Assembly (NCBI GenBank): GCA_902789415.1
Contig: CADAOD010000021.1
Span: 5,030-69,029 of the forward strand
Origin: an uncultured Prevotellaceae bacterium
GTDB lineage: Bacteria; Bacteroidota; Bacteroidia; Bacteroidales; Bacteroidaceae
Reading direction: 5' to 3'
DNA length: 64,000 nucleotides
Part shown: piece by piece, positions 5,181 to 54,263 of the stretch
Position numbering within the stretch: the first letter of the stretch is position 1
How the letters are laid out: the number at the start of each line of letters is the position of its first letter
Notes under the pieces: generated by a model
What the model was told of the DNA's origin: nothing
Database searches by the model: none
Seen by the model: only the letters and a program-made list of their open reading frames with translations
Made by a program: the position numbers and the translations under genes

Positions 5181-7333
5181 TGGGAAAGATTTCGATACAA
5201 GAATTAGCTAATGTGCTGGTTGAGCGCAGAAGAATGAACAAACGCGATGCAAGTTTGTTTGTAAGTGCTATGTTCGATATCGTACAGCAGCGACTTGAAA
5301 CCGATAAGTTGGTTAAAGTCAAAGGTCTGGGTACGTTCAAGATTATTGATGTTGAAGATCGCGAAAGCGTAAACGTAAATACCGGCGAGCGTGTGCTTAT
5401 CGAGGGTCACGGAAAAATTACTTTTGTGCCCGATGCTCTGATGAAGGAGTTGGTAAACAAGCCATTTGCCCAGTTCGAGACGGTGGTGCTGAACGATGGT
5501 GTGGATTTCGACGATGTTACAACCACATCTACAGATGAGCCCGAGCCCGAAGTGGATACAGAGCCTATCGTAGAACCCGATCCCGAACCAATTGTTGAGC
5601 CAGAACCAGAGCCTATCGTGGAGCCAGAACCAGAGCCCATCGCTGAGCCTGAACCCGAACCTGTTGTAGCGCCTGAGCCTGCTCCTGTGGTGGAGCCTGA
5701 ACCTCAAGTGAACATCGACGACAATCATGAGGCAATGCCATTGGTTGACTTTGGTGACAACGAGGAACCAGAGCCCATTGTAGCTCCTGAGCCTGTGGCT
5801 GTTCCCGAGCCTGTAGTTGAGCCCGAGCCCGTTGTTGAACCAGAGCCGGAACCTGTGGTAGAACCTGTAGCCGAGCCAGAGGATAACCCCGAGGCCGAAG
5901 CTAATGAGGTTGCGGATTTGGACGATGAGTTCGACGACGATATAGACGATGAACTTGAGGAGGAACTTAAGTTAGGTATGACTATTCGTCCTGAGACAAC
6001 AGTTCGCCCAAAGGAAGAACCAAAAGTTCTGGAAGATATCGCCGATGAAGATATTCCTGAATGGGTTATCGAGCCTTATGTTGCTTCGCCTGCCGAAGCA
6101 CCGGCAGAGCCAGCACCAGTCGTGGAGCCGGAGCCAATTGTAGCTCCAGAGCCCGAGCCTGTTGTAGAACCCGAACCAATTGTCACTCCTGAGCCCGAGC
6201 CAGTAGTAGAGCCAGAGCCAATTGTAGCTCCAGAGCCTGAGCCAATTGTCGCTCCTGAGCCTGTGGTTGAAACTCCAAAGCCTGCAATGAATTCTAATCT
6301 GCAATCGATTTTGAGTTCGTTCCAGACTATCAAGAAACCTGCTCCAGCTCCTGAACCCGAGCCTGCTCCAGAGCCAATCGTTGCTCCTGAGCCCGAGCCA
6401 ATCGTTGCTCCCGAGCCTGAGCCAGTTTATACTCCTGAGCCAGAGCCCGTTAGCCCTGTTGTAACCCAGCTCTCTGACGAGACCAAAATTACCGAGGAGT
6501 CGCTCCTTGATATGCCTGAGGATGAGCCCGAGCCAGTAGTGTTCCACGAGCCCGAGCCTGTGGTAGCTCCAGAACCAACTCCAGTAGTCGAGGAGCATAA
6601 GCTTACAGCTGATGAGGAGCTTGAGGCTGTTATTCCTGAAGAGCCCGAGAACGAGGAGCCTGAATACGAGTTTGAGTCAGCCCGTCCACGCAAGTCGGCC
6701 GGAAAATGGCTGTTGGCCTTGCTGGCATGTATCATTGGCTTAGGTTGTGGCTATCTGTTGGGTAATCATTATCCATATGCTAACTTCCTGCCTGATGAGA
6801 GCAGCGAGACCGTGATCCACGTTCAGAAGGAAGCCGCTCCTGAGGCACAGGCCGCTCCTGAGGTTGAAGCTGTAGTAGAGGAGACGCCTGCCGAAGTTGA
6901 GCAGCCAGCTGCCGAGTCTGATACCAAAGCTGCTGAAGCAAAGGCTGCCGAAGAGGCTAAGGCTGCAGAGGCTAAAGCCAAAGCAGATGCCGAAGCAAAG
7001 GCAAAAGCCGAGGCTGCTGCCAAGGCAAAGGCCGAAGCCGAAGCTAAGGCTAAGAAGGAGGCAGAGGCCAAAGCCAAAGCAGATAAGTACGATGCGATGG
7101 ACGCCAGAGTACGTCTTGGTGCCTACCGTATAGTTGGTACCGACCGCACAGTAAAGGTTAAGGAAGGCGAGAATCTTGTAAAGATTTCACGTCGTGTTTT
7201 TGGCCCCGATATGGAGTGCTATCTTGAGGTATATAATAACATCAAAGCCTCTACACCACTCAAGGTTGGTCAGGAAATCAAGATTCCAAAACTGGAGCTG
7301 AAGAAGAAAAAGAAGGCCACAACAGCCAACTAA
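5177..7333 (+). CDS. HU-domain protein with a long Pro/Glu-rich linker, one TM helix, an Ala/Lys/Glu-rich helix and a C-terminal LysM-like domain
   Basis: N-terminal [30 protein letters not shown]; (V/I)xxPEPEP repeats; [19 protein letters not shown]; [26 protein letters not shown]. Confidence 0.8.
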
Positions 7334-20610: not shown

Positions 20611-20700
20611 GGAAGGATGGGTGAGTGGCTGAAACCAGCAGTTTGCTAAACTGCCGTACGGGTTCCCGTACCGGGGGTTCGAATCCCCCTCCTTCCGCCA
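20611..20700 (+). tRNA. tRNA-Ser(GCT)
   Basis: Cloverleaf with long variable arm, anticodon loop TT-GCT-AA, GTTCGAATC T-arm, encoded CCA. Confidence 0.95.
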
Positions 20701-20736
20701 AAGGAGATCTCCGAGATTTGTCTTTGACATGCTGTT

Positions 20737-20808
20737 GGTCGATTCATCTAATGGTTAGGATACAAGATTCTCAATCTTGGCATAGGGGTTCGATTCCCCT
20801 ATCGACTA
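20737..20808 (+). tRNA. tRNA-Glu(CTC), copy 1
   Basis: Anticodon stem-loop CAAGA-TT-CTC-AA-TCTTG, GTTCGATTC T-arm. Confidence 0.93.
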
Positions 20809-20899
20809 CAACATCTTTTACATTTTGGTCGATTGAGTTTTCAACTCTATCTCCCTCGCGACTCGGCAATTCAAGTAAACTTGATTGCGCTCGCTGCTC

Positions 20900-20971
20900 G
20901 GTCGATTCATCTAATGGTTAGGATACAAGATTCTCAATCTTGGCATAGGGGTTCGATTCCCCTATCGACTA
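20900..20971 (+). tRNA. tRNA-Glu(CTC), copy 2; integration target
   Basis: Identical to copy 1 over 72 nt; 3' end duplicated at 54504-54518. Confidence 0.93.
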
Positions 20972-20972
20972 C
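20958..20972 (+). repeat. attL core
   Basis: TCCCCTATCGACTAC, same as 54504-54518. Confidence 0.9.
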
Positions 20973-39267: not shown

Positions 39268-39801
39268 ATGAAAAAGAGTATTTTTCTGAATTTGATGACA
39301 GTAGCCATGATGGCTGCTATGTGTGTAACCTTTACAGCCTGTGGCGGTGATGACGGTGACAGCACGCCAGGTAAGCCAGACGGTCCGTCAGGACAAACAG
39401 GCAGCACAGAGTATGTAACCCCGTGTCTGGACTTTGGCAGCTCTATAGCACATGTGAAGGAGTATATGTCCGGCACCATCTGGCAGCTGAACGAGAACAG
39501 TAACGACGCTGTTCTGCTCTACATGAACAACCAGGCGACGACAGTGGTAAACTACATGTTCATCAACTCTAAGCTTCACATGACAACTGTTACCTATAAC
39601 GGCGGCGGTGAGAGCAAGGCAAATGCCTTCAAAGCGGAGATAGAGAAATTGTATGGCGTGACGATGACGCGCGAAAATGACCCCGACAACCCTGCCCAGT
39701 TCTCATATCATTGTACGGTAACCGTCAACCAGAAGAGCGTTGTTATCATGATGACCTGCTACGCACAAGGAATCAACATCCTTTATAGTTTGCCAGATTG
39801 A
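39268..39801 (+). CDS. Hypothetical lipoprotein
   Basis: Lipobox TFTAC-GGDD; promoter TATCTTTG near 39219. Confidence 0.75.
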   Translation: MKKSIFLNLMTVAMMAAMCVTFTACGGDDGDSTPGKPDGPSGQTGSTEYVTPCLDFGSSIAHVKEYMSGTIWQLNENSNDAVLLYMNNQATTVVNYMFINSKLHMTTVTYNGGGESKANAFKAEIEKLYGVTMTRENDPDNPAQFSYHCTVTVNQKSVVIMMTCYAQGINILYSLPD

Positions 39802-39920
39802 GACATGAAGAATGACAATATGAGCAGGCGTGACAATGAGCATGATGCCGACTACCTGCGACACCTCGACGAAGTGCTGCAGGAAGAGGAACAAGCACAC
39901 ACAGACTATCTCGACTGATT

Positions 39921-40118
39921 ATGGATGCCAACTACTATAGCAGCTATCTGAAGGTATATCTTACCGATGCCGGTGATGCCCGAAAGGATGATGAAGACTT
40001 CATCAGTTCCAGGGCCGATGCAGCATCAGAAGAGTATGAGGTGCAGCGCCGTGCCGGTGCTCCACCCCCATGTGCCCAGGAAATGGCAATGTCAGTCCTG
40101 ATGGTAGGGTTAGAATAG
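39921..40118 (+). CDS. DUF1896-like small protein
   Basis: YYSSYLKVYL..FISSRADAASEEYE....G.....AQEMAMSVLMVGL pattern of Bacteroidota conjugative elements. Confidence 0.7.
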   Translation: MDANYYSSYLKVYLTDAGDARKDDEDFISSRADAASEEYEVQRRAGAPPPCAQEMAMSVLMVGLE

Positions 40119-40127
40119 CGATCTTTG

Positions 40128-41297
40128 AAACACTGAGATATAGCCTGGCATGCGGCACTTGAGCGATGGGGTTACGCTATTAAGTTAAGTGTTCTGTGAT
40201 TCCATGAGCGTAGCGGTGCCAGGCCCTTATATCGCCGAAGGACTGGATAACGGTTACTGCACCTATTTCTTCTGGAGCATGACTCCGTTTGTGATGGATG
40301 CAGGTTAAGACGTCGAGCTTAGGGGGCGTTCATACGAACGAGCATCTATGACCAGTGAAGGCGATTACTACTGGAGGTTATGCTGTCATTGTCATTATAG
40401 GATTGAATTGCATTAGCAAGGTCTCTCCGCGACGCAGCATATACCTCCATTTTGGGACTTGCGGAGGGGTTCGTCAACAACTGCCCCTGTATGACCATCC
40501 CATGAGCGAGCGGTGCCAGGTTCCTATGGGGAATGTCGGCACTTGAGCCTCCTTTTTGGTGAGCGTTGCGATTCCCCGTCATGGGAAAAGCGGGTGAGAG
40601 TCCCGCACAAGGGGAATGGCAGTTGCTTTGAAAGGTGATCCCACACCCGGTACGACGATTCCCCGTTCTTCTTGGAGGGTTGCGCCAGAGCGTCAAGGGC
40701 GTAAGGAGTGGGGCAAGTACATCACTCGCTGAGAGGCCCCTCCATCTACTGGAGAGTGCAGTATAGGTATTCACAGGTGCTACGGCACGTCTGCGAGGGT
40801 CTGAGGCAAACGCCGATAACGACTGGAAAAACGGCTCTCCATTCTTCTGGGAGTCATTGCCATTATAGGATAGAATTGCATCCGCAAGGTCTTTCCGCGG
40901 CGCTCCCATCTTCTCAGGACGGATGTAATAGTCCTGAAGCTGCACACTGCCGGGTGGAGTAGTTCCCTGCATCCGGGTTCTTCCACTGAAGACAAGCCAG
41001 ACAGGAGTGCAGCATTTTTGGAAACGCCATGTACGCCTCGGCGGAATCGGACTGCCGTCGATCTTGGGTTTCCATCGGGAGGATATTCACGGGAACTGTG
41101 TCCGTGCAGAAGTGCCTCCCGACCTATTGGAGAGTGCGGATATAGGCGAATCCGGGTGCTTCAATGGCACGTCTGGGTGTCCCTGAGATAGCATCAATAA
41201 TGGGTGGAAAAACGGCTCTCCAATCTACTGAGCTGCTGCCGTTGGCTACGCGATTAGGTTCGTGTTCTGTAGTTCGACGGTGGCAGTGTTTTTTTTG
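40128..41297 (+). ncRNA. Candidate large modular structured RNA (or RNA-motif array)
   Basis: No credible ORF; duplicated motifs with compensatory changes; G-U pairs favour the + strand; ends in a hairpin plus T8 at 41235-41296. Confidence 0.6.
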
Positions 41298-41455
41298 ACT
41301 CTGTGCTTTTTGGACAGGACGTCGGCGAATCTGCAAGGGGTGCTGCTCGATGGGAGGAACCCTTTCCAATTCTTTCCAATTCTTGCAAAATTGGAAAGAA
41401 TTATATATATTGGGCGCAGTCCGCTATTACCGATTCCAGAGAGAATAAAGACTTG

Positions 41456-41546
41456 TTAACAATTATCAGCCGCTGGCTGGGAATTATAAAAATATGTAAA
41501 AGAACTGTTGAAAAGTTGTTTTACATTAACTTTTTCGTAACTTTGC
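41456..41546 (+). promoter_or_regulatory. 91-bp promoter cassette, copy 1
   Basis: 85/91 identical to 42681-42771; ends in a TAnnTTTG box. Confidence 0.8.
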
Positions 41547-41604
41547 ACTCAAAGAACGTGGACTTGATGCTCCACAACCATTGTATATTCAAATATTTGA
41601 TAAA

Positions 41605-42285
41605 ATGAAACATGTACTTTTATTATTAGTGTTTTTTGCCATTCCTGCTATCAGTATTGCCCAGGGAGCAGATGATTTCTTCACCAGTCCTGAATTTAAG
41701 GCAGACATTCAAGAGTACAACAAGACAACGAAAGGCAGTAACAAGAAGCGTTGCCAGATGTTGATGAAGTTAGAAAATCATATGAACGATGAAGGTGAAA
41801 TCCAATATCAGTACGTGTTTCATGCCAAGGACACCCTGAATAGAGCACAGCTCATGGAGATTGTCAAGCGATGGGCCAAGACGAATTATAAGAATCTTGA
41901 GAAATCGACTATCAGCGAGACGGACAGTACCGCTGAATATACAGGCTATTTTATGAATGTCGGTCAGGTTATGGGTGCTTTTAAGGCCGTCATCATCAAT
42001 GCAATTTCGTATGTCCTCATCGAAGCCAAGGCCGACAGGATTAGAGTGACGGCTACCGTCAGACACTACTCCCTGGCACAGGGAAGTGTTTCCGGTGCCA
42101 AGACTGCCCTAACCTTACCAAAAGATGTTTATCCATATGCTGATTCATCTAATCAAAGTACCTATGCTCAGGCATATATTAACTGTCACTATAATCTTAT
42201 AACAACAGTTGCCGGTATTCTGATGTATCTTAACAAGAATTACCCTTCTTTCCCTGCTAAGGAAAAGAAGAATGATGATTGGTGA
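41605..42285 (+). CDS. Secreted DUF4468-like protein (start moved to ATG 41605)
   Basis: Signal peptide; YQYVF..LNRAQLMEIVKRWA..IEAKADRIRVT. Confidence 0.6.
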   Translation: MKHVLLLLVFFAIPAISIAQGADDFFTSPEFKADIQEYNKTTKGSNKKRCQMLMKLENHMNDEGEIQYQYVFHAKDTLNRAQLMEIVKRWAKTNYKNLEKSTISETDSTAEYTGYFMNVGQVMGAFKAVIINAISYVLIEAKADRIRVTATVRHYSLAQGSVSGAKTALTLPKDVYPYADSSNQSTYAQAYINCHYNLITTVAGILMYLNKNYPSFPAKEKKNDDW

Positions 42286-42360: not shown

Positions 42361-42680
42361 CTTTGAAATATAACAGGTTATCTTGCCTATTTGGGTAAGA
42401 TTATCTTACCCATGTACCCTGTATCAGATCAGCCTACTAAAATATAAGGTGCTCCTTGTATTTTACATCAATTTTGATGTATTTGAAGGTGTAAAGATAT
42501 TTTATTTCGCCCGATTTTAGGGGGATATAACTACCTCACCTGCAGTCTGTTTCGCGTTCTACGGGCTTTATATGAGGTCATTTTCTCCGTCGACATCGGT
42601 AAAATGCCCGTTTCGGCAAAATACTTGACAATATTCAGTTGGCGTATCTTTTACCGATGCAGGAAAGGAATTTGTACCTA

Positions 42681-42771
42681 TTAACAGTTATCAGCCACTG
42701 GCTGGGAATTATAAAAATATGTAAAAGAACTGTTGAAAAGATGTTTTGCATTATCTTTTTCGTACCTTTGC
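42681..42771 (+). promoter_or_regulatory. 91-bp promoter cassette, copy 2
   Basis: Direct repeat of 41456-41546; ends in TACCTTTG. Confidence 0.8.
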
Positions 42772-42793
42772 TGTCAGATAATAACTCTCAGCA

Positions 42794-45562
42794 ATGAAAT
42801 CAGACAAACAAATCGCCAAAGATGCTGCTGAATTTGCAGACCGTTGGCAGGGAGAAGGGTACGAAAAAGGTCAAAGCCAGATGTTTTGGAGTGACCTTCT
42901 GACGAAAGTTTATGGGATAGAAGATCTTACGTCTTTCGTCCGTTTCGAGGAACAGGTGAAGAGTGATATATCAACCACCAACTTCATCGATGTTCGTATT
43001 CCATCAACGAAGGTGTTCATAGAGCAGAAGTCCATCAACAAAGACCTACGTGCTCCCATCAGGCAAAGTGACGGTAATTTCCTGACACCATTTCAGCAGG
43101 TGAAGAGGTATGCCAACGATGTAAGCTATTCACAGCGTCCACGTTGGATAATTACCTGCAATTTCAAAGAGTTCCTGGTCTATGACATGGAACAGCCGAA
43201 CAGCGAGCCAGAAAGTATTTTACTGAAAGACCTCGGTACCGATTATTATCGTCTGAAGTTCCTCGTCGATGAAAAGAGCGAGCATATCAGCAAGGAGATG
43301 GAGGTTTCAATGGCAGCGGGAGAAATTGTAGGACGTATCTACGATGCGCTGCTGAAGCAATATGATGACAATTCACCAGAAGCTCTGCGATGGCTGAATA
43401 TCCTTTGTGTCCGCATTGTGTTCTGTCTGTATGCTGAGGATGCTGGCATCTTCAGCCGAGACCAATTCCATAACTATCTGGCGAAATTTGACGCAGAAGG
43501 AATGCGGCAAGCACTACTGCAGTTATTCCAAACGCTGAACACAAAGGAAGGTAACAGGAGCAAATTCTTACGAGACGACCTGAAAGCATTCCCATATACC
43601 AATGGAGGATTGTTTGCTGCTGAAATCGAGATACCTCAGTTTACGGATGAGCTGCGTAAGGTTTTATTGCATAATGCCAGTCTCGATTTCGATTGGAGCA
43701 AGATATCCCCCACCATCTTTGGAGCCGTTTTTGAATCGACATTGAACCCGGAAACGAGACGTGCAGGAGGTATGCACTACACCAGTATTGAGAATATTCA
43801 TAAAGTCATTGATGCCCTATTCCTGAATACACTCAGGAAGGAGTTCGAGACCATTCTTGAAGAGAAAGTAGAGAAGACCAGGAACAGGCTGCTTGATGCC
43901 TTTCAAGACAAGCTGGCCAGTCTGGTTTTCTTCGATCCCGCTTGTGGCTCCGGCAACTTCCTGACGGAAACATACCTAAGTCTGCGCCGTCTGGAGAATG
44001 ACGTCATTCGTGCCAGATATCACGGACAGGCATTTATTGGTTTTGAAGATAATTCGCCCATCAAGGTAAGTATAAGCCAGTTCTACGGCATAGAGATAAA
44101 CGACTTTGCCGTGACAGTGGCCACCACTGCCCTTTGGATTAGTGAGGCCCAGATGTTGGCTGAGACAGAGAAGATTATTGACTTTAATGATGACTTCCTT
44201 CCACTAAAGACCTACACGAATATTACGGAAGGTAATGCCCTACGCATAGAATGGAAGGATGTAGTTCCTGTAGAGCGACTGTCATATATCATCGGCAATC
44301 CTCCATTTGTTGGCCATCAATGGCGCAATGAGACGCAGCAGGAGGACATGAATCTTGTATTCGCAGATGCAAAGAAACATGGGAAACTTGACTACGTAGC
44401 TTGTTGGTATAAAAAAGCAGCTGATTTAATGCAGAACACACACATCAAATGTGCTTTCGTTTCAACAAACAGTATAACACAAGGTGAAAGTGTGGCGGCA
44501 TTGTGGGAATTGCTTTTTGGGCAGTTTTATGTGGAAATTCAGTTCGCTTATCGAACATTCAACTGGACAAGTGAGGCTTCTCTTAAAGCAGCCGTGCATT
44601 GTGTCATTATAGGTTTTACATGTTACCACGATAAGGAGCAGAAGATTCTTTTTGATAACGACAAGCTATCTTATGTTGAGCATATCAATGGATATCTCTT
44701 AGCGGCTCCCGACATCTTCATTCAGTCAAGAGGGAAACCCCTCAATGCTGATTTACCCATTATGAGCAAAGGAAGTCAGCCAACAGATGGAGGAAATCTG
44801 ATTCTGTCGGTAGAGGAGCGTGAGGAACTAATAAAAGCCTTTCCTGATGCTGAAGTTTTCGTCAAACGTTACATGGGAAGCGATGAGTTTATAAATAACA
44901 AGTATAGATATTGCTTATGGCTAAAGGGGGTCGCACCATCTGATTATAGGAAGATTTCCCCAGTTATGGAACGTTTAAAGAAGGTTGCTGAGACAAGATC
45001 CAAGAGTCCAACGGCATCGGTGAGACGCGATGCAGATATTCCCATGCTATTCACTCAGATTCGACAACCCGAAAGTAATTACCTTGCTGTTCCTGAAGTT
45101 TCTTCACAACGTCGTAGGTATATTCCTATAGGATATATGTCACCAGATGTCATATCGAGTAGTAAACTTATTCTGATTCCCGATGCTTCCATTTACATGT
45201 TTGGCGTGATGACGTCTAATGTTCACATGGCATGGATGCGTGTTGTTTGTGGGCGTTTGAAAAGCGATTATAGCTATTCTCCAGCCGTTTACAACAACTT
45301 CCCATGGCCATCACCCACGGATGAACAGAAAGTAAAGATTGAGCAGACTGCGCAAGCTATACTCGATGCCCGTGCGCTTTATCCGGAAAGCAGTTTGGCA
45401 GATCTCTATGACGAAGTGGCTATGCCACCAGAGCTGCGAAAAGCGCACCAGGCTAACGACCGTGCCGTCATGGAGGCCTATGGATGGAAAGCTGACAGGA
45501 ATTTCACTGAAAGCGTTTGTGTGGCTGAACTATTCAAGCTATACCAGAATTTGGCAAAATGA
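42794..45562 (+). CDS. MmeI-like (Type IIL/IIG) fused restriction endonuclease - N6-adenine methyltransferase
   Basis: N-terminal nuclease (FIDV..VFIEQKS), GMHYT, FDPACGSGNFL, IGNPPF, C-terminal TRD (H.AW.R.VCGRLKSDY.YS...YNNFPWP). Confidence 0.9.
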   Translation: MKSDKQIAKDAAEFADRWQGEGYEKGQSQMFWSDLLTKVYGIEDLTSFVRFEEQVKSDISTTNFIDVRIPSTKVFIEQKSINKDLRAPIRQSDGNFLTPFQQVKRYANDVSYSQRPRWIITCNFKEFLVYDMEQPNSEPESILLKDLGTDYYRLKFLVDEKSEHISKEMEVSMAAGEIVGRIYDALLKQYDDNSPEALRWLNILCVRIVFCLYAEDAGIFSRDQFHNYLAKFDAEGMRQALLQLFQTLNTKEGNRSKFLRDDLKAFPYTNGGLFAAEIEIPQFTDELRKVLLHNASLDFDWSKISPTIFGAVFESTLNPETRRAGGMHYTSIENIHKVIDALFLNTLRKEFETILEEKVEKTRNRLLDAFQDKLASLVFFDPACGSGNFLTETYLSLRRLENDVIRARYHGQAFIGFEDNSPIKVSISQFYGIEINDFAVTVATTALWISEAQMLAETEKIIDFNDDFLPLKTYTNITEGNALRIEWKDVVPVERLSYIIGNPPFVGHQWRNETQQEDMNLVFADAKKHGKLDYVACWYKKAADLMQNTHIKCAFVSTNSITQGESVAALWELLFGQFYVEIQFAYRTFNWTSEASLKAAVHCVIIGFTCYHDKEQKILFDNDKLSYVEHINGYLLAAPDIFIQSRGKPLNADLPIMSKGSQPTDGGNLILSVEEREELIKAFPDAEVFVKRYMGSDEFINNKYRYCLWLKGVAPSDYRKISPVMERLKKVAETRSKSPTASVRRDADIPMLFTQIRQPESNYLAVPEVSSQRRRYIPIGYMSPDVISSSKLILIPDASIYMFGVMTSNVHMAWMRVVCGRLKSDYSYSPAVYNNFPWPSPTDEQKVKIEQTAQAILDARALYPESSLADLYDEVAMPPELRKAHQANDRAVMEAYGWKADRNFTESVCVAELFKLYQNLAK

Positions 45563-52913: not shown

Positions 52914-54263
52914 CTATTGCTTGTCAAACAATAACATTGCATCCTCTTTAGCCTTGTCAGCTATTTCAATGTATGGTTTCATGGCCGAATAATCGCTGTG
53001 TCCTGTCCATTTCATCACTATCTGAGGGGCGATGCCAAGCATCAGAGCGTTACAGATGAAGGTTCTACGTCCTGCATGAGTGGACATCAGCTGATACTTA
53101 GCATAGACTTCGTCTACACGTTGGCTGCCACGATAATAAGTGACAGGAATAGCCTCGTTAAAGCCAACAATCTCAGCCATCTCCTTCAGATAGTCATTCA
53201 TTCGCTGGTTGCTGATAACAGGAAGGACCTTATCATACGGAAAATTATCCTTTCGGTATTTGTTCAAGATAGCTTTGGCATACTTGTTCAATTCGATCTT
53301 CAAGGAGTCACCGGTTTTTACGGTCGTTATTTGAATATAGCCAGGGAAAAGATTGCTTCGCTTTAGGTTTTCGACGTCAGAATAACGTAAAGAAGTGAAA
53401 CAGCAGAAGCAGAACACATCCCTAACACGTTCAAGAGTGGACTTTTCAAGCCCCACACGCTTCTCGTATTCATATCCGTGGACATCGACAAGGGTCAGCT
53501 TCGTTCCGACGTCAGGAAAGCTAAATTCATAGAGCTTCATCAGTTCGTCCCAATCCAGGAAGACGATAGGTTTCTTAGTCTTCTGAAGTTTTGGCCTAAA
53601 ATTGGCCTTTATGGACGTGTAACCTTTATTTTCTGCCCACCGGATGAAGTATCGCAGACGGCTTGTGTATTTTTCAATCGTAGAATTACGTAGAAACTTT
53701 ACCTCACGAAGAAAATCTACAAAGTACGTAGTTCCATCTTCGTTAAAATAATCGATGGAGGTTACATGTTTATAGTCAAAGAAATCAGTCATGTGCTTCT
53801 GGAACGACTTCATACTTTTGCTCGTTGCCAAACGCCAGCTATTTTTGTCTTTCTGTTCTTCCAAGAAATCTGACAACCGTTTTCTGATGTCATCTGGTAG
53901 TTCTTCTTTCTCTTCAGTTGTTTCTACCTTCTGCTTTTTGAAGTTCTCGTTATAGATGCTTTTCAGGTCACCCACAGTCTGACCATTTCTCCGTAGTTCG
54001 TCCTCATATTCACTAAAAAAGCTATCTATACGTTTCAACTTACTGTTTAACTCGCGGGCAGTAAGAGAACCTATCATCACTGGTTTACCAGCGTATGAAA
54101 GTAGAATTCTCTGAGTGTCCTGATTCCAGTACTCAGGTTTTATAGAGAAACCTGCAGTCGTGGTGAGGCGCTTGCCTTGAATACAGATAGCACATCTCAC
54201 TGTAACGTCGCCATCTCCACGCTTCTTCTCTCTGGTTTTATCTAAGAAAAATCTGACTGACAT
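52914..54263 (-). CDS. Tyrosine integrase
   Basis: Arm-binding N-terminus; SLRYSD, TVKT, HAGRRTF, WTGHS..MKPY catalytic R-K-H-R-H-Y. Confidence 0.95.
   Translation of the reverse strand: MSVRFFLDKTREKKRGDGDVTVRCAICIQGKRLTTTAGFSIKPEYWNQDTQRILLSYAGKPVMIGSLTARELNSKLKRIDSFFSEYEDELRRNGQTVGDLKSIYNENFKKQKVETTEEKEELPDDIRKRLSDFLEEQKDKNSWRLATSKSMKSFQKHMTDFFDYKHVTSIDYFNEDGTTYFVDFLREVKFLRNSTIEKYTSRLRYFIRWAENKGYTSIKANFRPKLQKTKKPIVFLDWDELMKLYEFSFPDVGTKLTLVDVHGYEYEKRVGLEKSTLERVRDVFCFCCFTSLRYSDVENLKRSNLFPGYIQITTVKTGDSLKIELNKYAKAILNKYRKDNFPYDKVLPVISNQRMNDYLKEMAEIVGFNEAIPVTYYRGSQRVDEVYAKYQLMSTHAGRRTFICNALMLGIAPQIVMKWTGHSDYSAMKPYIEIADKAKEDAMLLFDKQ

Follow-up and report, generated by a model that had tools for sequence, protein, structure and literature searches.

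Within a 64,000-nucleotide stretch of DNA from an uncultured Prevotellaceae bacterium (contig CADAOD010000021.1; hereafter the window), the two halves of a short sequence motif, motif C, occur twice between positions 40144 and 40548: once with half A before half B and once, at first sight, with half B before half A. Natural circular permutation is known in small ribozymes, namely, hammerhead types I to III, twister (P1, P3, and P5), and the hairpin ribozyme. A preliminary description of the locus read the two arrangements as circular permutations of one motif, possibly a new catalytic or processing module. Does the locus encode a permuted ribozyme, or are the two halves parts of something else? 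We find no evidence of a permuted ribozyme at 40144–40548. Instead, with high probability, half A forms the 5′ strand and half B the 3′ strand of a large internal loop, asymmetric and rich in purines, within a hairpin domain that recurs. That judgment covers the structural parse as a whole; a docking or scaffold function of the module is graded separately below.

Results

Motif C recurs as an internal loop of a clamp-closed hairpin

All four half-strings are present on the forward strand of the window (Table 1). Half A is the 12-mer CGGCACTTGAGC, and half B has the general form CATGAGCG(T)AGCGGTGCCAGG. The 12-mer occurs only twice in the 64 kb, counting either strand, as does the 11-mer GCGGTGCCAGG. 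With up to one mismatch allowed, the 12-mer has three matches against 0.29 expected, a count reached in 0 of 100 shuffles. The repetition of the motif C halves is real and not a product of chance.

Three further features had been overlooked: a third B-like strand (TGAGCGTTGCG) at 40560–40570, the clamp strands GCCTGGCA (40143–40150) and TGCCAGGC (40217–40224), and a second clamp pair, GGGGAAT (40528–40534) and ATTCCCC (40571–40577). Because of this third strand and these two clamp pairs, the parse of the locus changes. Each domain runs from a clamp helix, P1, through strand A, a variable stem (P2), and strand B back to P1. The 5′ strand of P1 is CCUGGCA or GGGGAAU, followed by YG(N), and its 3′ strand is UGCCAGG or AUUCCCC. 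Across loci, the general clamp frame is N-CCUGGCA-YG ... RCGG-UGCCAGG-N, with interchangeable inserts inside. Strand A consists of CRGY, four to nine variable nucleotides, and GAGCC, while strand B consists of UGAGCK, one or two nucleotides, and GCKG. P2 ranges from a 2-bp mini-hairpin to one or two “M” modules of ~50 nt (UUGGGA..UCCCA). The minimal A-B domain, with a 4-bp hairpin as P2, spans 58 nt (positions 118–175 of the related locus L378).

Related loci contain at least 17 clamp-closed domains, with at least four classes of insert. Strand B and the clamp are almost invariant, whereas strand A, P2, and the surroundings vary; the loop nucleotides are strongly conserved, and each RNA displays one to three copies of the module. 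The preliminary description had proposed a two-strand internal-loop motif, with UGAGC on both strands. Both proposals hold, the loop lying between two helices, and the motif recurs in ~20 distinct covariance-model instances across the window and 13 related loci.

A second class of insert (GCAGUUGCUUUGAAA, a hairpin, and CGGUACGACG) occurs in both clamp types. It is closed by GGGGAAU/AUUCCCC at 40611–40664 of the window, where its fold z score is only −0.42, and by CCUGGCA/UGCCAGG in L238, L219, L304, and L203. Thus, clamps and inserts combine independently.

The clamp helix covaries and is specific to the forward strand

In an alignment of 12 domains, a model of P1 and P2 has 98% of cells paired and five pairs changed on both sides. 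Its covariation is 0.315, compared with 0.127 in shuffles, and none of 500 shuffles reaches that score. Slid controls were at most 49% paired. P1 and P2 therefore behave as helices of a structured RNA domain under a generic covariation test, through few independent events. For two variants of the 5′ clamp strand, CUUGGCA and UCUGGCA, pairing with the invariant UGCCAGG is possible only through G-U pairs, which points to an RNA of the forward strand.

The covariance model built from the alignment has three matches in the window (40143–40224, 40432–40521, and 40526–40579), all on the forward strand. In the 13 related loci, the same model matches the RNA strand only. Folding is also asymmetric between the strands, with z scores of −2.64 (forward) versus −0.92 (reverse) for domain I and −2.73 versus −1.5 for domain III.

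The preliminary description also drew a helix between GGCAC and GTGCC in both places. The literal complementarity is there, but actual pairing is not borne out: 74% of cells are paired, there are zero compensatory changes, and 500 of 500 shuffles do as well. In relatives, GGCAC is exchanged for GGCCCC, GGUCUG, CAGUGU, or GGCUGG, and GUGCC is taken up by the covarying clamp helix P1.

The apparent permutation lies at a boundary between tandem domains

The window contains three domains head to tail, at the 5′ end of a candidate RNA gene. Every instance of the motif, including all three in the window, has strand A 5′ of strand B inside one clamp-closed hairpin. What had been described as a permuted second copy is strand B of domain II (B2) joined to strand A of domain III (A2). 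B2 stands 16 nt before A2 because it ends 7 nt before the clamp of domain III. The corresponding distance from B to this clamp is ~110 nt in L226 and ~310 nt in L203, and B is absent from L244.

Domain III has the same loop as domain I inside a wholly different, fully compensatory clamp. It is kept in four sequence variants, with occurrences in L203/L214/L226/L239, L230/L242/L268, and L244; the variants include a G-U clamp (GUUCCCC) and a different A strand (CGGCUGGUGAGCC). This domain is conserved regardless of the upstream sequence.

In the window, domain II is without its own 5′ clamp strand and A strand. Four DNA runs (X1 to X4), which otherwise match 39900–41500 at 97% or more (X1 with no mismatch, X2 and X4 with one each), all have 30 extra bases (AGCCTGCCTGGCATGACAGTGTGAGGAGCC) between 40454 and 40452. 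The identical 30 letters are found in contigs of X1 (depth of 122), X2, and X4 and as loose ends in X3; the sequence at the gap reads AGCCTG-CCTGGCATG-ACAGTGTGAGGAGCC. These 30 bases encode domain II's own clamp strand and an A-type strand. The same arrangement is present in an RNA contig (X28, record 25), where CATGACAGTGTGAGGAGCC is followed by 40452–40650. The 30-base difference at 40452–40454 is either a natural deletion, flanked by direct repeats of TTG, or a slip in the assembly. The apparent permutation is very probably a boundary effect between domains II and III, heightened by the missing 30 bases.

Related RNAs are mosaics of shared modules

The relatives kept after BLAST screening comprise at least one IMG/VR contig (L001/L119) with four separate RNA genes, twelve rumen metagenome contigs, and four genome loci (two places in RUG14681 and one in RUG14617, both metagenome-assembled genomes of rumen Bacteroidales, and locus L598); these counts are no measure of abundance. 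Relatives share modules in different order and number, with breakpoints often right after GCGGTGCCAGG. The shortest complete RNA, of ~265 nt (L119, 1797–2070), combines a single clamp domain with one G domain and the terminator domain. Pattern scans (AAAACGGCTCTCCA; GCCTGGCATG..GGCMC..GAGC; clamp-to-clamp; TGAGCK..GCKGTGCCAGG) gave mostly chance hits among the matches listed.

At the gathering threshold, an Rfam 15 cmscan of the whole window returned tRNAs only. Relaxed searches, with expectation values (E) up to 10 for 39800–41700 and up to 5 for L119 1700–6100, returned only noise (small nucleolar RNA, microRNA, and a 12.5-bit group II intron fragment). Among the self-cleaving classes (hammerhead, twister, twister-sister, hairpin, pistol, hatchet, HDV-like, glmS, and VS), no Rfam model matched. 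A BLAST search of GenBank phages gave no match, and a protein-based locus search with the 65–amino acid open reading frame (ORF) upstream of the RNA found only the IMG/VR contig. We found no description of this RNA in the literature on structured RNAs of the rumen or Bacteroidales, FopS, DUF1896, or non-coding RNAs of conjugative transposons. The RNA is thus a candidate new structured-RNA family, absent from Rfam 15, with a distribution so far restricted to rumen Bacteroidales.

The group II fragment concerns a hairpin (AAGCGGGUGAGAGUCCCGC) at 40587–40605, which is similar to the beginning of the group II intron D1-D4 model (E of 8). This resemblance is almost certainly noise, but the GNGAGAGUC-type loop of the hairpin may act as a motif for tertiary contacts.

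The domains belong to a candidate RNA gene with promoter-like and terminator sequences

There is no credible ORF in 40120–41300. A minus-strand ORF at 40346–40972 (208 amino acids) was rejected as a gene: it has no family match, and the similarity in relatives is fragmentary and nucleotide-driven. The −7 box of Bacteroidota promoters is TAnnTTTG. The 5′ flank of the RNA carries a near match to this box (Table 1) and is kept as TCTTTGAAA..GAGATAaA before GCCTGGCA in copies a and b of L001/L119, and perfect boxes (TAtcTTTG or TAacTTTG) stand ahead of the same domain in L202 and L397. Judged by this likeness, the flank probably acts as a promoter.

At the other end, the terminator hairpin (41232–41287) has a fold z score of −5.02, and 0 of 200 shuffles are equally stable. 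This intrinsic terminator identifies the forward strand as the transcribed one. The stem of the terminator (GCUGCCG../..CGGUGGCAG) forms a clamp in its own right: it carries a bare UUCG tetraloop in L397 (4858–4886) and elsewhere closes structured inserts of 30 to 40 nt (a GAUUAGU-loop hairpin). In L119, where the stem lies at 5595–5665 and 5978–6045, it also ends two short promoter-driven RNAs without motif C. Between the clamp domains and the terminator lie two copies of a G domain, which covaries from GGUGC/GCAC to GGUAC/GUAC in 6 sequences (13 variants aligned).

Modules of the RNA are found in eight rumen metatranscriptome runs from several studies, seven of them with several contigs and one (X55) with only one. 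In the seven runs with usable coverage, contig depth is for the most part higher over the RNA than on its flanks: mostly 7 to 41 versus 0 to 3 on most flanks. These contigs revealed no site at which many molecules start or stop. At BLAST sensitivity, a search for antisense targets found nothing complementary to the RNA elsewhere in the 64 kb.

The RNA gene lies in an integrative mobilizable element

An integrative mobilizable element, carried by a rumen bacterium of the Bacteroidales, contains the RNA. This element is integrated into a Bacteroidota chromosome, represented in the window by BatA/BatD, GH2, and M20 genes, and the matching DNA runs are bovine rumen metagenomes. The likely attachment region of the element is a tRNA cluster at its left edge. 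In L397, too, a tRNA-like sequence is followed by the RNA gene as the first feature.

Table 1. Coordinates of the motif C strands, the RNA domains, and the annotated features of the mobile element in the window.
Feature	Position	Strand	Details
Candidate non-coding RNA	40135–41296	+	~1.15 kb; 53% G+C versus 43% in the rest of the element
Promoter-like 5′ flank	40120–40142	+	gATCTTTG, one mismatch from the −7 box TAnnTTTG, ~15 nt before P1
Half A	40153–40164 and 40537–40548	+	CGGCACTTGAGC; exact string match
Half B, first place	40203–40223	+	CATGAGCGTAGCGGTGCCAGG; exact string match
Half B, second place	40501–40520	+	CATGAGCGAGCGGTGCCAGG; exact string match
Domain I	40143–40224	+	P1 GCCUGGCAU (40143–40151) with GUGCCAGGC (40216–40224); covariance-model match of 64.2 bits
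Domain I, inner parts	A1 40153–40164; P2 40166–40205; B1 within 40203–40223	+	P2 AUGG.. (from 40166) with ..CCAU (to 40205)
Domain II	~40432–40521	+	Covariance-model match of 23.1 bits, E of 0.008; sequence not in the training set; degraded
Domain II, parts	M module from 40452 to 40498–40502; B2 and clamp 3′ strand 40501–40520	+	M module UUGGGA (from 40452) to UCCCA (40498–40502)
Domain III	40528–40577	+	P1′ GGGGAAU (40528–40534) with AUUCCCC (40571–40577); model match of 48.1 bits at 40526–40579
Domain III, inner parts	A2 40537–40548; mini P2 hairpin 40550–40559; B3 40560–40570	+	B3 is UGAGCGUUGCG
Domain IV	40611–40664	+	GGGGAAU/AUUCCCC clamp around a different insert (GCAGUUGCUUUGAAA, hairpin, CGGUACGACG)
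G domain, copy 1	40736–40850	+	UGGAGAGUGC ... AAAACGGCUCUCCA; internal repeat with 41114–41232
G domain, copy 2	41114–41232	+	Internal repeat of copy 1
Terminator domain	41232–41296	+	Stem GCUGCUGCCGUUGG / CGACGGUGGCAG, internal hairpin, U8 at 41289–41296
tRNA-Ser(GCT), then two tRNA-Glu(CTC)	20611–20972		Left edge of the element; Glu Rfam-matched stretches identical, 163 nt apart
DnaB-like helicase			In the element
Type IIG (MmeI-family) restriction-modification enzyme	42794–45562
MobA/VirD2 relaxase and MobC-like protein		−	In the element
Tyrosine integrase	52914–54263		End of the element, 12 kb from the RNA; only recombinase

Just upstream of the RNA, the 65–amino acid ORF (39921–40118) matches only positions 6 to 68 of the 142-position DUF1896 profile, that is, its N-terminal half. 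The same short form precedes the RNA in L119, L219, L224, and L238 (80 to 85% identity), as if the RNA locus had replaced the 3′ half of the gene.

Downstream of the RNA, a perfect 14-nt inverted repeat (AATTCTTTCCAATT ... AATTGGAAAGAATT) at 41368–41402, ~70 nt past the terminator, scored as terminator-like and may represent an operator or a terminator that works in both directions. A direct repeat of 106 nt occurs in two copies with 89% identity (41451–41556 and 42676–42781), and both contain a TAnnTTTG box (cgTAACTTTG at 41537 and cgTACCTTTG at 42761). They precede an ORF at 41581–42285, which has no Pfam, PHROG, or PADLOC match, and the type IIG restriction-modification gene, respectively. 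This repeat looks like a reusable promoter cassette for cargo genes.

The gene adjoining the RNA differs between loci. It encodes a UvrD-like helicase of ~870 amino acids on the opposite strand in L378 (1458–4067, minus strand) and L238 (10569–13181, minus strand) and a calcineurin-like phosphoesterase in L119 (4758–5393) and L598 (3287–3934); in the window, its product is the type IIG restriction-modification enzyme. The RNA appears to border a variable cargo slot.

Discussion

A small self-cleaving or processing ribozyme, present in two circular permutations around a GGCAC/GUGCC core helix, would be in keeping with halves that are complementary over 5 to 6 bp, with the strong conservation of the loop nucleotides, and with a local B2-A2 hairpin that is mildly stable (−17.5 kcal/mol, z = −1.7). 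We nevertheless consider such a ribozyme extremely improbable. Its core helix does no better than shuffles and shows no compensatory change, GGCAC is not conserved, and GUGCC belongs to P1. Furthermore, the spacing from B to A at the supposed permuted copy is not fixed in relatives, all ~20 instances have the order A then B, and Rfam, searched at E up to 10, yields no match to a ribozyme or to any other family. That the motif C loop is a putative new processing or catalytic site is just as improbable. Another reading takes the window as given, in which B2 has no normal partner, and supposes a lineage-specific fold, with a role of its own, in which either A2 or the 5′ clamp far away at 40143 becomes the pairing partner of the orphan B2. 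Minimum free energy folds of 40501–40548 and 40143–40521 do use these pairings. However, the junction that orphans B2 is found in none of the four near-identical DNA runs and may be an assembly slip; the fold would break the conserved clamp of domain III and is itself not conserved. We consider such an alternative fold with a separate role very unlikely.

The inverted repeats CCTGGCA...TGCCAGG could instead act as DNA, as recombination sites or hairpins like those of attC, repetitive extragenic palindromes (REP), or miniature inverted-repeat transposable elements (MITE), with transcripts being incidental. Extreme mosaicism, with breakpoints exactly at GCGGTGCCAGG both in loci and in RNA and DNA contigs, would fit this, as would the position of the locus in a mobile element beside variable cargo. 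Against it, the repeats have a single orientation and one locus per element, the G-U-only substitutions are strand-specific, and the locus has UNCG tetraloops as well as a promoter-like flank and an intrinsic terminator. The region is enriched in G+C, and its RNA is over-represented in metatranscriptomes. The surroundings lack an integron integrase and a RAYT-type gene, and the R′/R″ consensus of attC is missing. The 64 kb hold no copies outside 40120–41300, and the only recombinase is the tyrosine integrase 12 kb away; attC, REP, and MITE were rejected on these grounds. We thus regard an action at the DNA level as highly doubtful. A cis-acting leader, be it a riboswitch or a processive antitermination element like put of phage HK022, would control read-through into the cargo genes. 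In L119 copy b and L598, the terminator indeed lies only ~25 to 40 nt before the metallophosphoesterase gene on the same strand, and the genes of the element are largely co-directional. However, the genes downstream of the RNA in the window and of L119 copy a have their own TAnnTTTG promoters, 190 to 280 nt past the terminator. The downstream genes also differ by locus (restriction-modification, opposite-strand UvrD-like helicase, phosphoesterase, and relaxase), and copy number and module content vary freely. We therefore judge a cis-acting leader to be unlikely.

Several observations weigh against our preferred reading of motif C as the internal loop of a tandemly repeated, transcribed hairpin domain. 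The double-sided changes in P1 mostly reflect one clamp swap (three sequences) and the outermost pair, such that there are few independent events. The aligned sequences are related and mosaic, and P2 hardly varies. Within the loop, none of three candidate pairings (the registers CUUG:UGAG and UGAGC:GCGUA plus CGGC:GCGG, or the 2-bp GY:GC of RNAalifold) is kept consistently across variants. The window's junction at 40452 is absent from the four DNA runs, and in this exact molecule B2, deprived of the strand it normally pairs with, may form a local fold with A2 (z = −1.7). Last, the evidence for the RNA consists of assembled contigs without strand or ends, and carry-over of DNA is possible.

The candidate RNA resembles several known systems in part. 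ROOL and GOLLD are large, ornate non-coding RNAs of bacteria and phages (Weinberg et al. 2017, PMC5737381). The RNA described here is likewise long (0.26 to 1.15 kb), G+C-rich, and multi-domain, is found in rumen metagenomes, and is linked to mobile DNA. In contrast, it has no Rfam match and is a string of interchangeable hairpin modules, variable in copy number and without a fixed architecture. Sponge small RNAs of the CsrB/RsmZ type also display a short, conserved, purine-rich motif on many tandem hairpins of one RNA, with a varying number of repeats. Here, however, the motif lies in an internal rather than an apical loop, and its sequence is UGAGCG..GCGG. We know of no CsrA-like partner in Bacteroidota, and a functional resemblance to these sponges is speculation by analogy. 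The recombining, beads-on-a-string architecture is unlike both groups. Permuted small ribozymes share with motif C a conserved two-strand core between helices and variable peripheral stems; they differ in that motif C has no covariance-model match among them, only one topology, and a proposed core helix without covariation.

Further candidates were rejected. Like motif C, kink-turns and C/D-box–like tandem G-A motifs have an internal loop beside a helix in which both strands contain a GA dinucleotide. Inspection of the alignment (A1) found, for either P1 or P2, no 3-nt bulge directly before GA and no GA abutting a C-stem: strand B has only a U between P2 and GA, the GA of strand A is 4 nt from P2, and CGG and GCGG stand beside P1. 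Type III antitoxins of the ToxI kind are near-identical tandem repeats of ~34 to 36 nt, directly upstream of an endoribonuclease toxin gene. The units here are hairpins of 50 to 95 nt with different inserts, the downstream ORF (41581–42285) has no family match, and the next gene encodes the type IIG restriction-modification enzyme. Loop E, retron, and tRNA-like readings were ruled out on sequence or context.

What might a tandem array of clamp-closed loops do? Recombination at the invariant clamps would shuffle the modules of the RNA family. By repeating the clamp-plus-loop hairpin, a stable RNA acting in trans could offer multivalent docking to a protein or engage in RNA-RNA tertiary contacts. 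A docking or scaffold function is our best guess, and a tentative one. We propose it because strand B and the clamp are nearly invariant while strand A, P2, and the surroundings vary, because an RNA carries the module in one to three copies, and because the RNA genes have what appear to be their own promoter and terminator. The wider proposal is of a new family of modular, recombining non-coding RNAs (0.26 to 1.15 kb) on rumen Bacteroidales elements, in which motif C would be a multivalent docking or self-assembly module of a sponge or scaffold. We consider this proposal plausible, if a little short of an even chance. The partner of such a sponge or scaffold would be a protein of the host or of the element, with a possible tie to the variable defense cargo alongside.

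A new permuted ribozyme would have been notable, but the evidence does not support one. What remains is a candidate class of RNA, present in rumen metatranscriptomes and carried on mobile elements beside variable, defense-type cargo. A minimal construct of 52 to 58 nt is already defined by its natural variants, which place one loop in two clamps and have a P2 of anything between 2 bp and two 50-nt modules. To our knowledge, the RNAs of mobile elements in Bacteroidota are poorly known. The partner of the module, if identified, could therefore reveal a new layer of interaction between such elements and their hosts.

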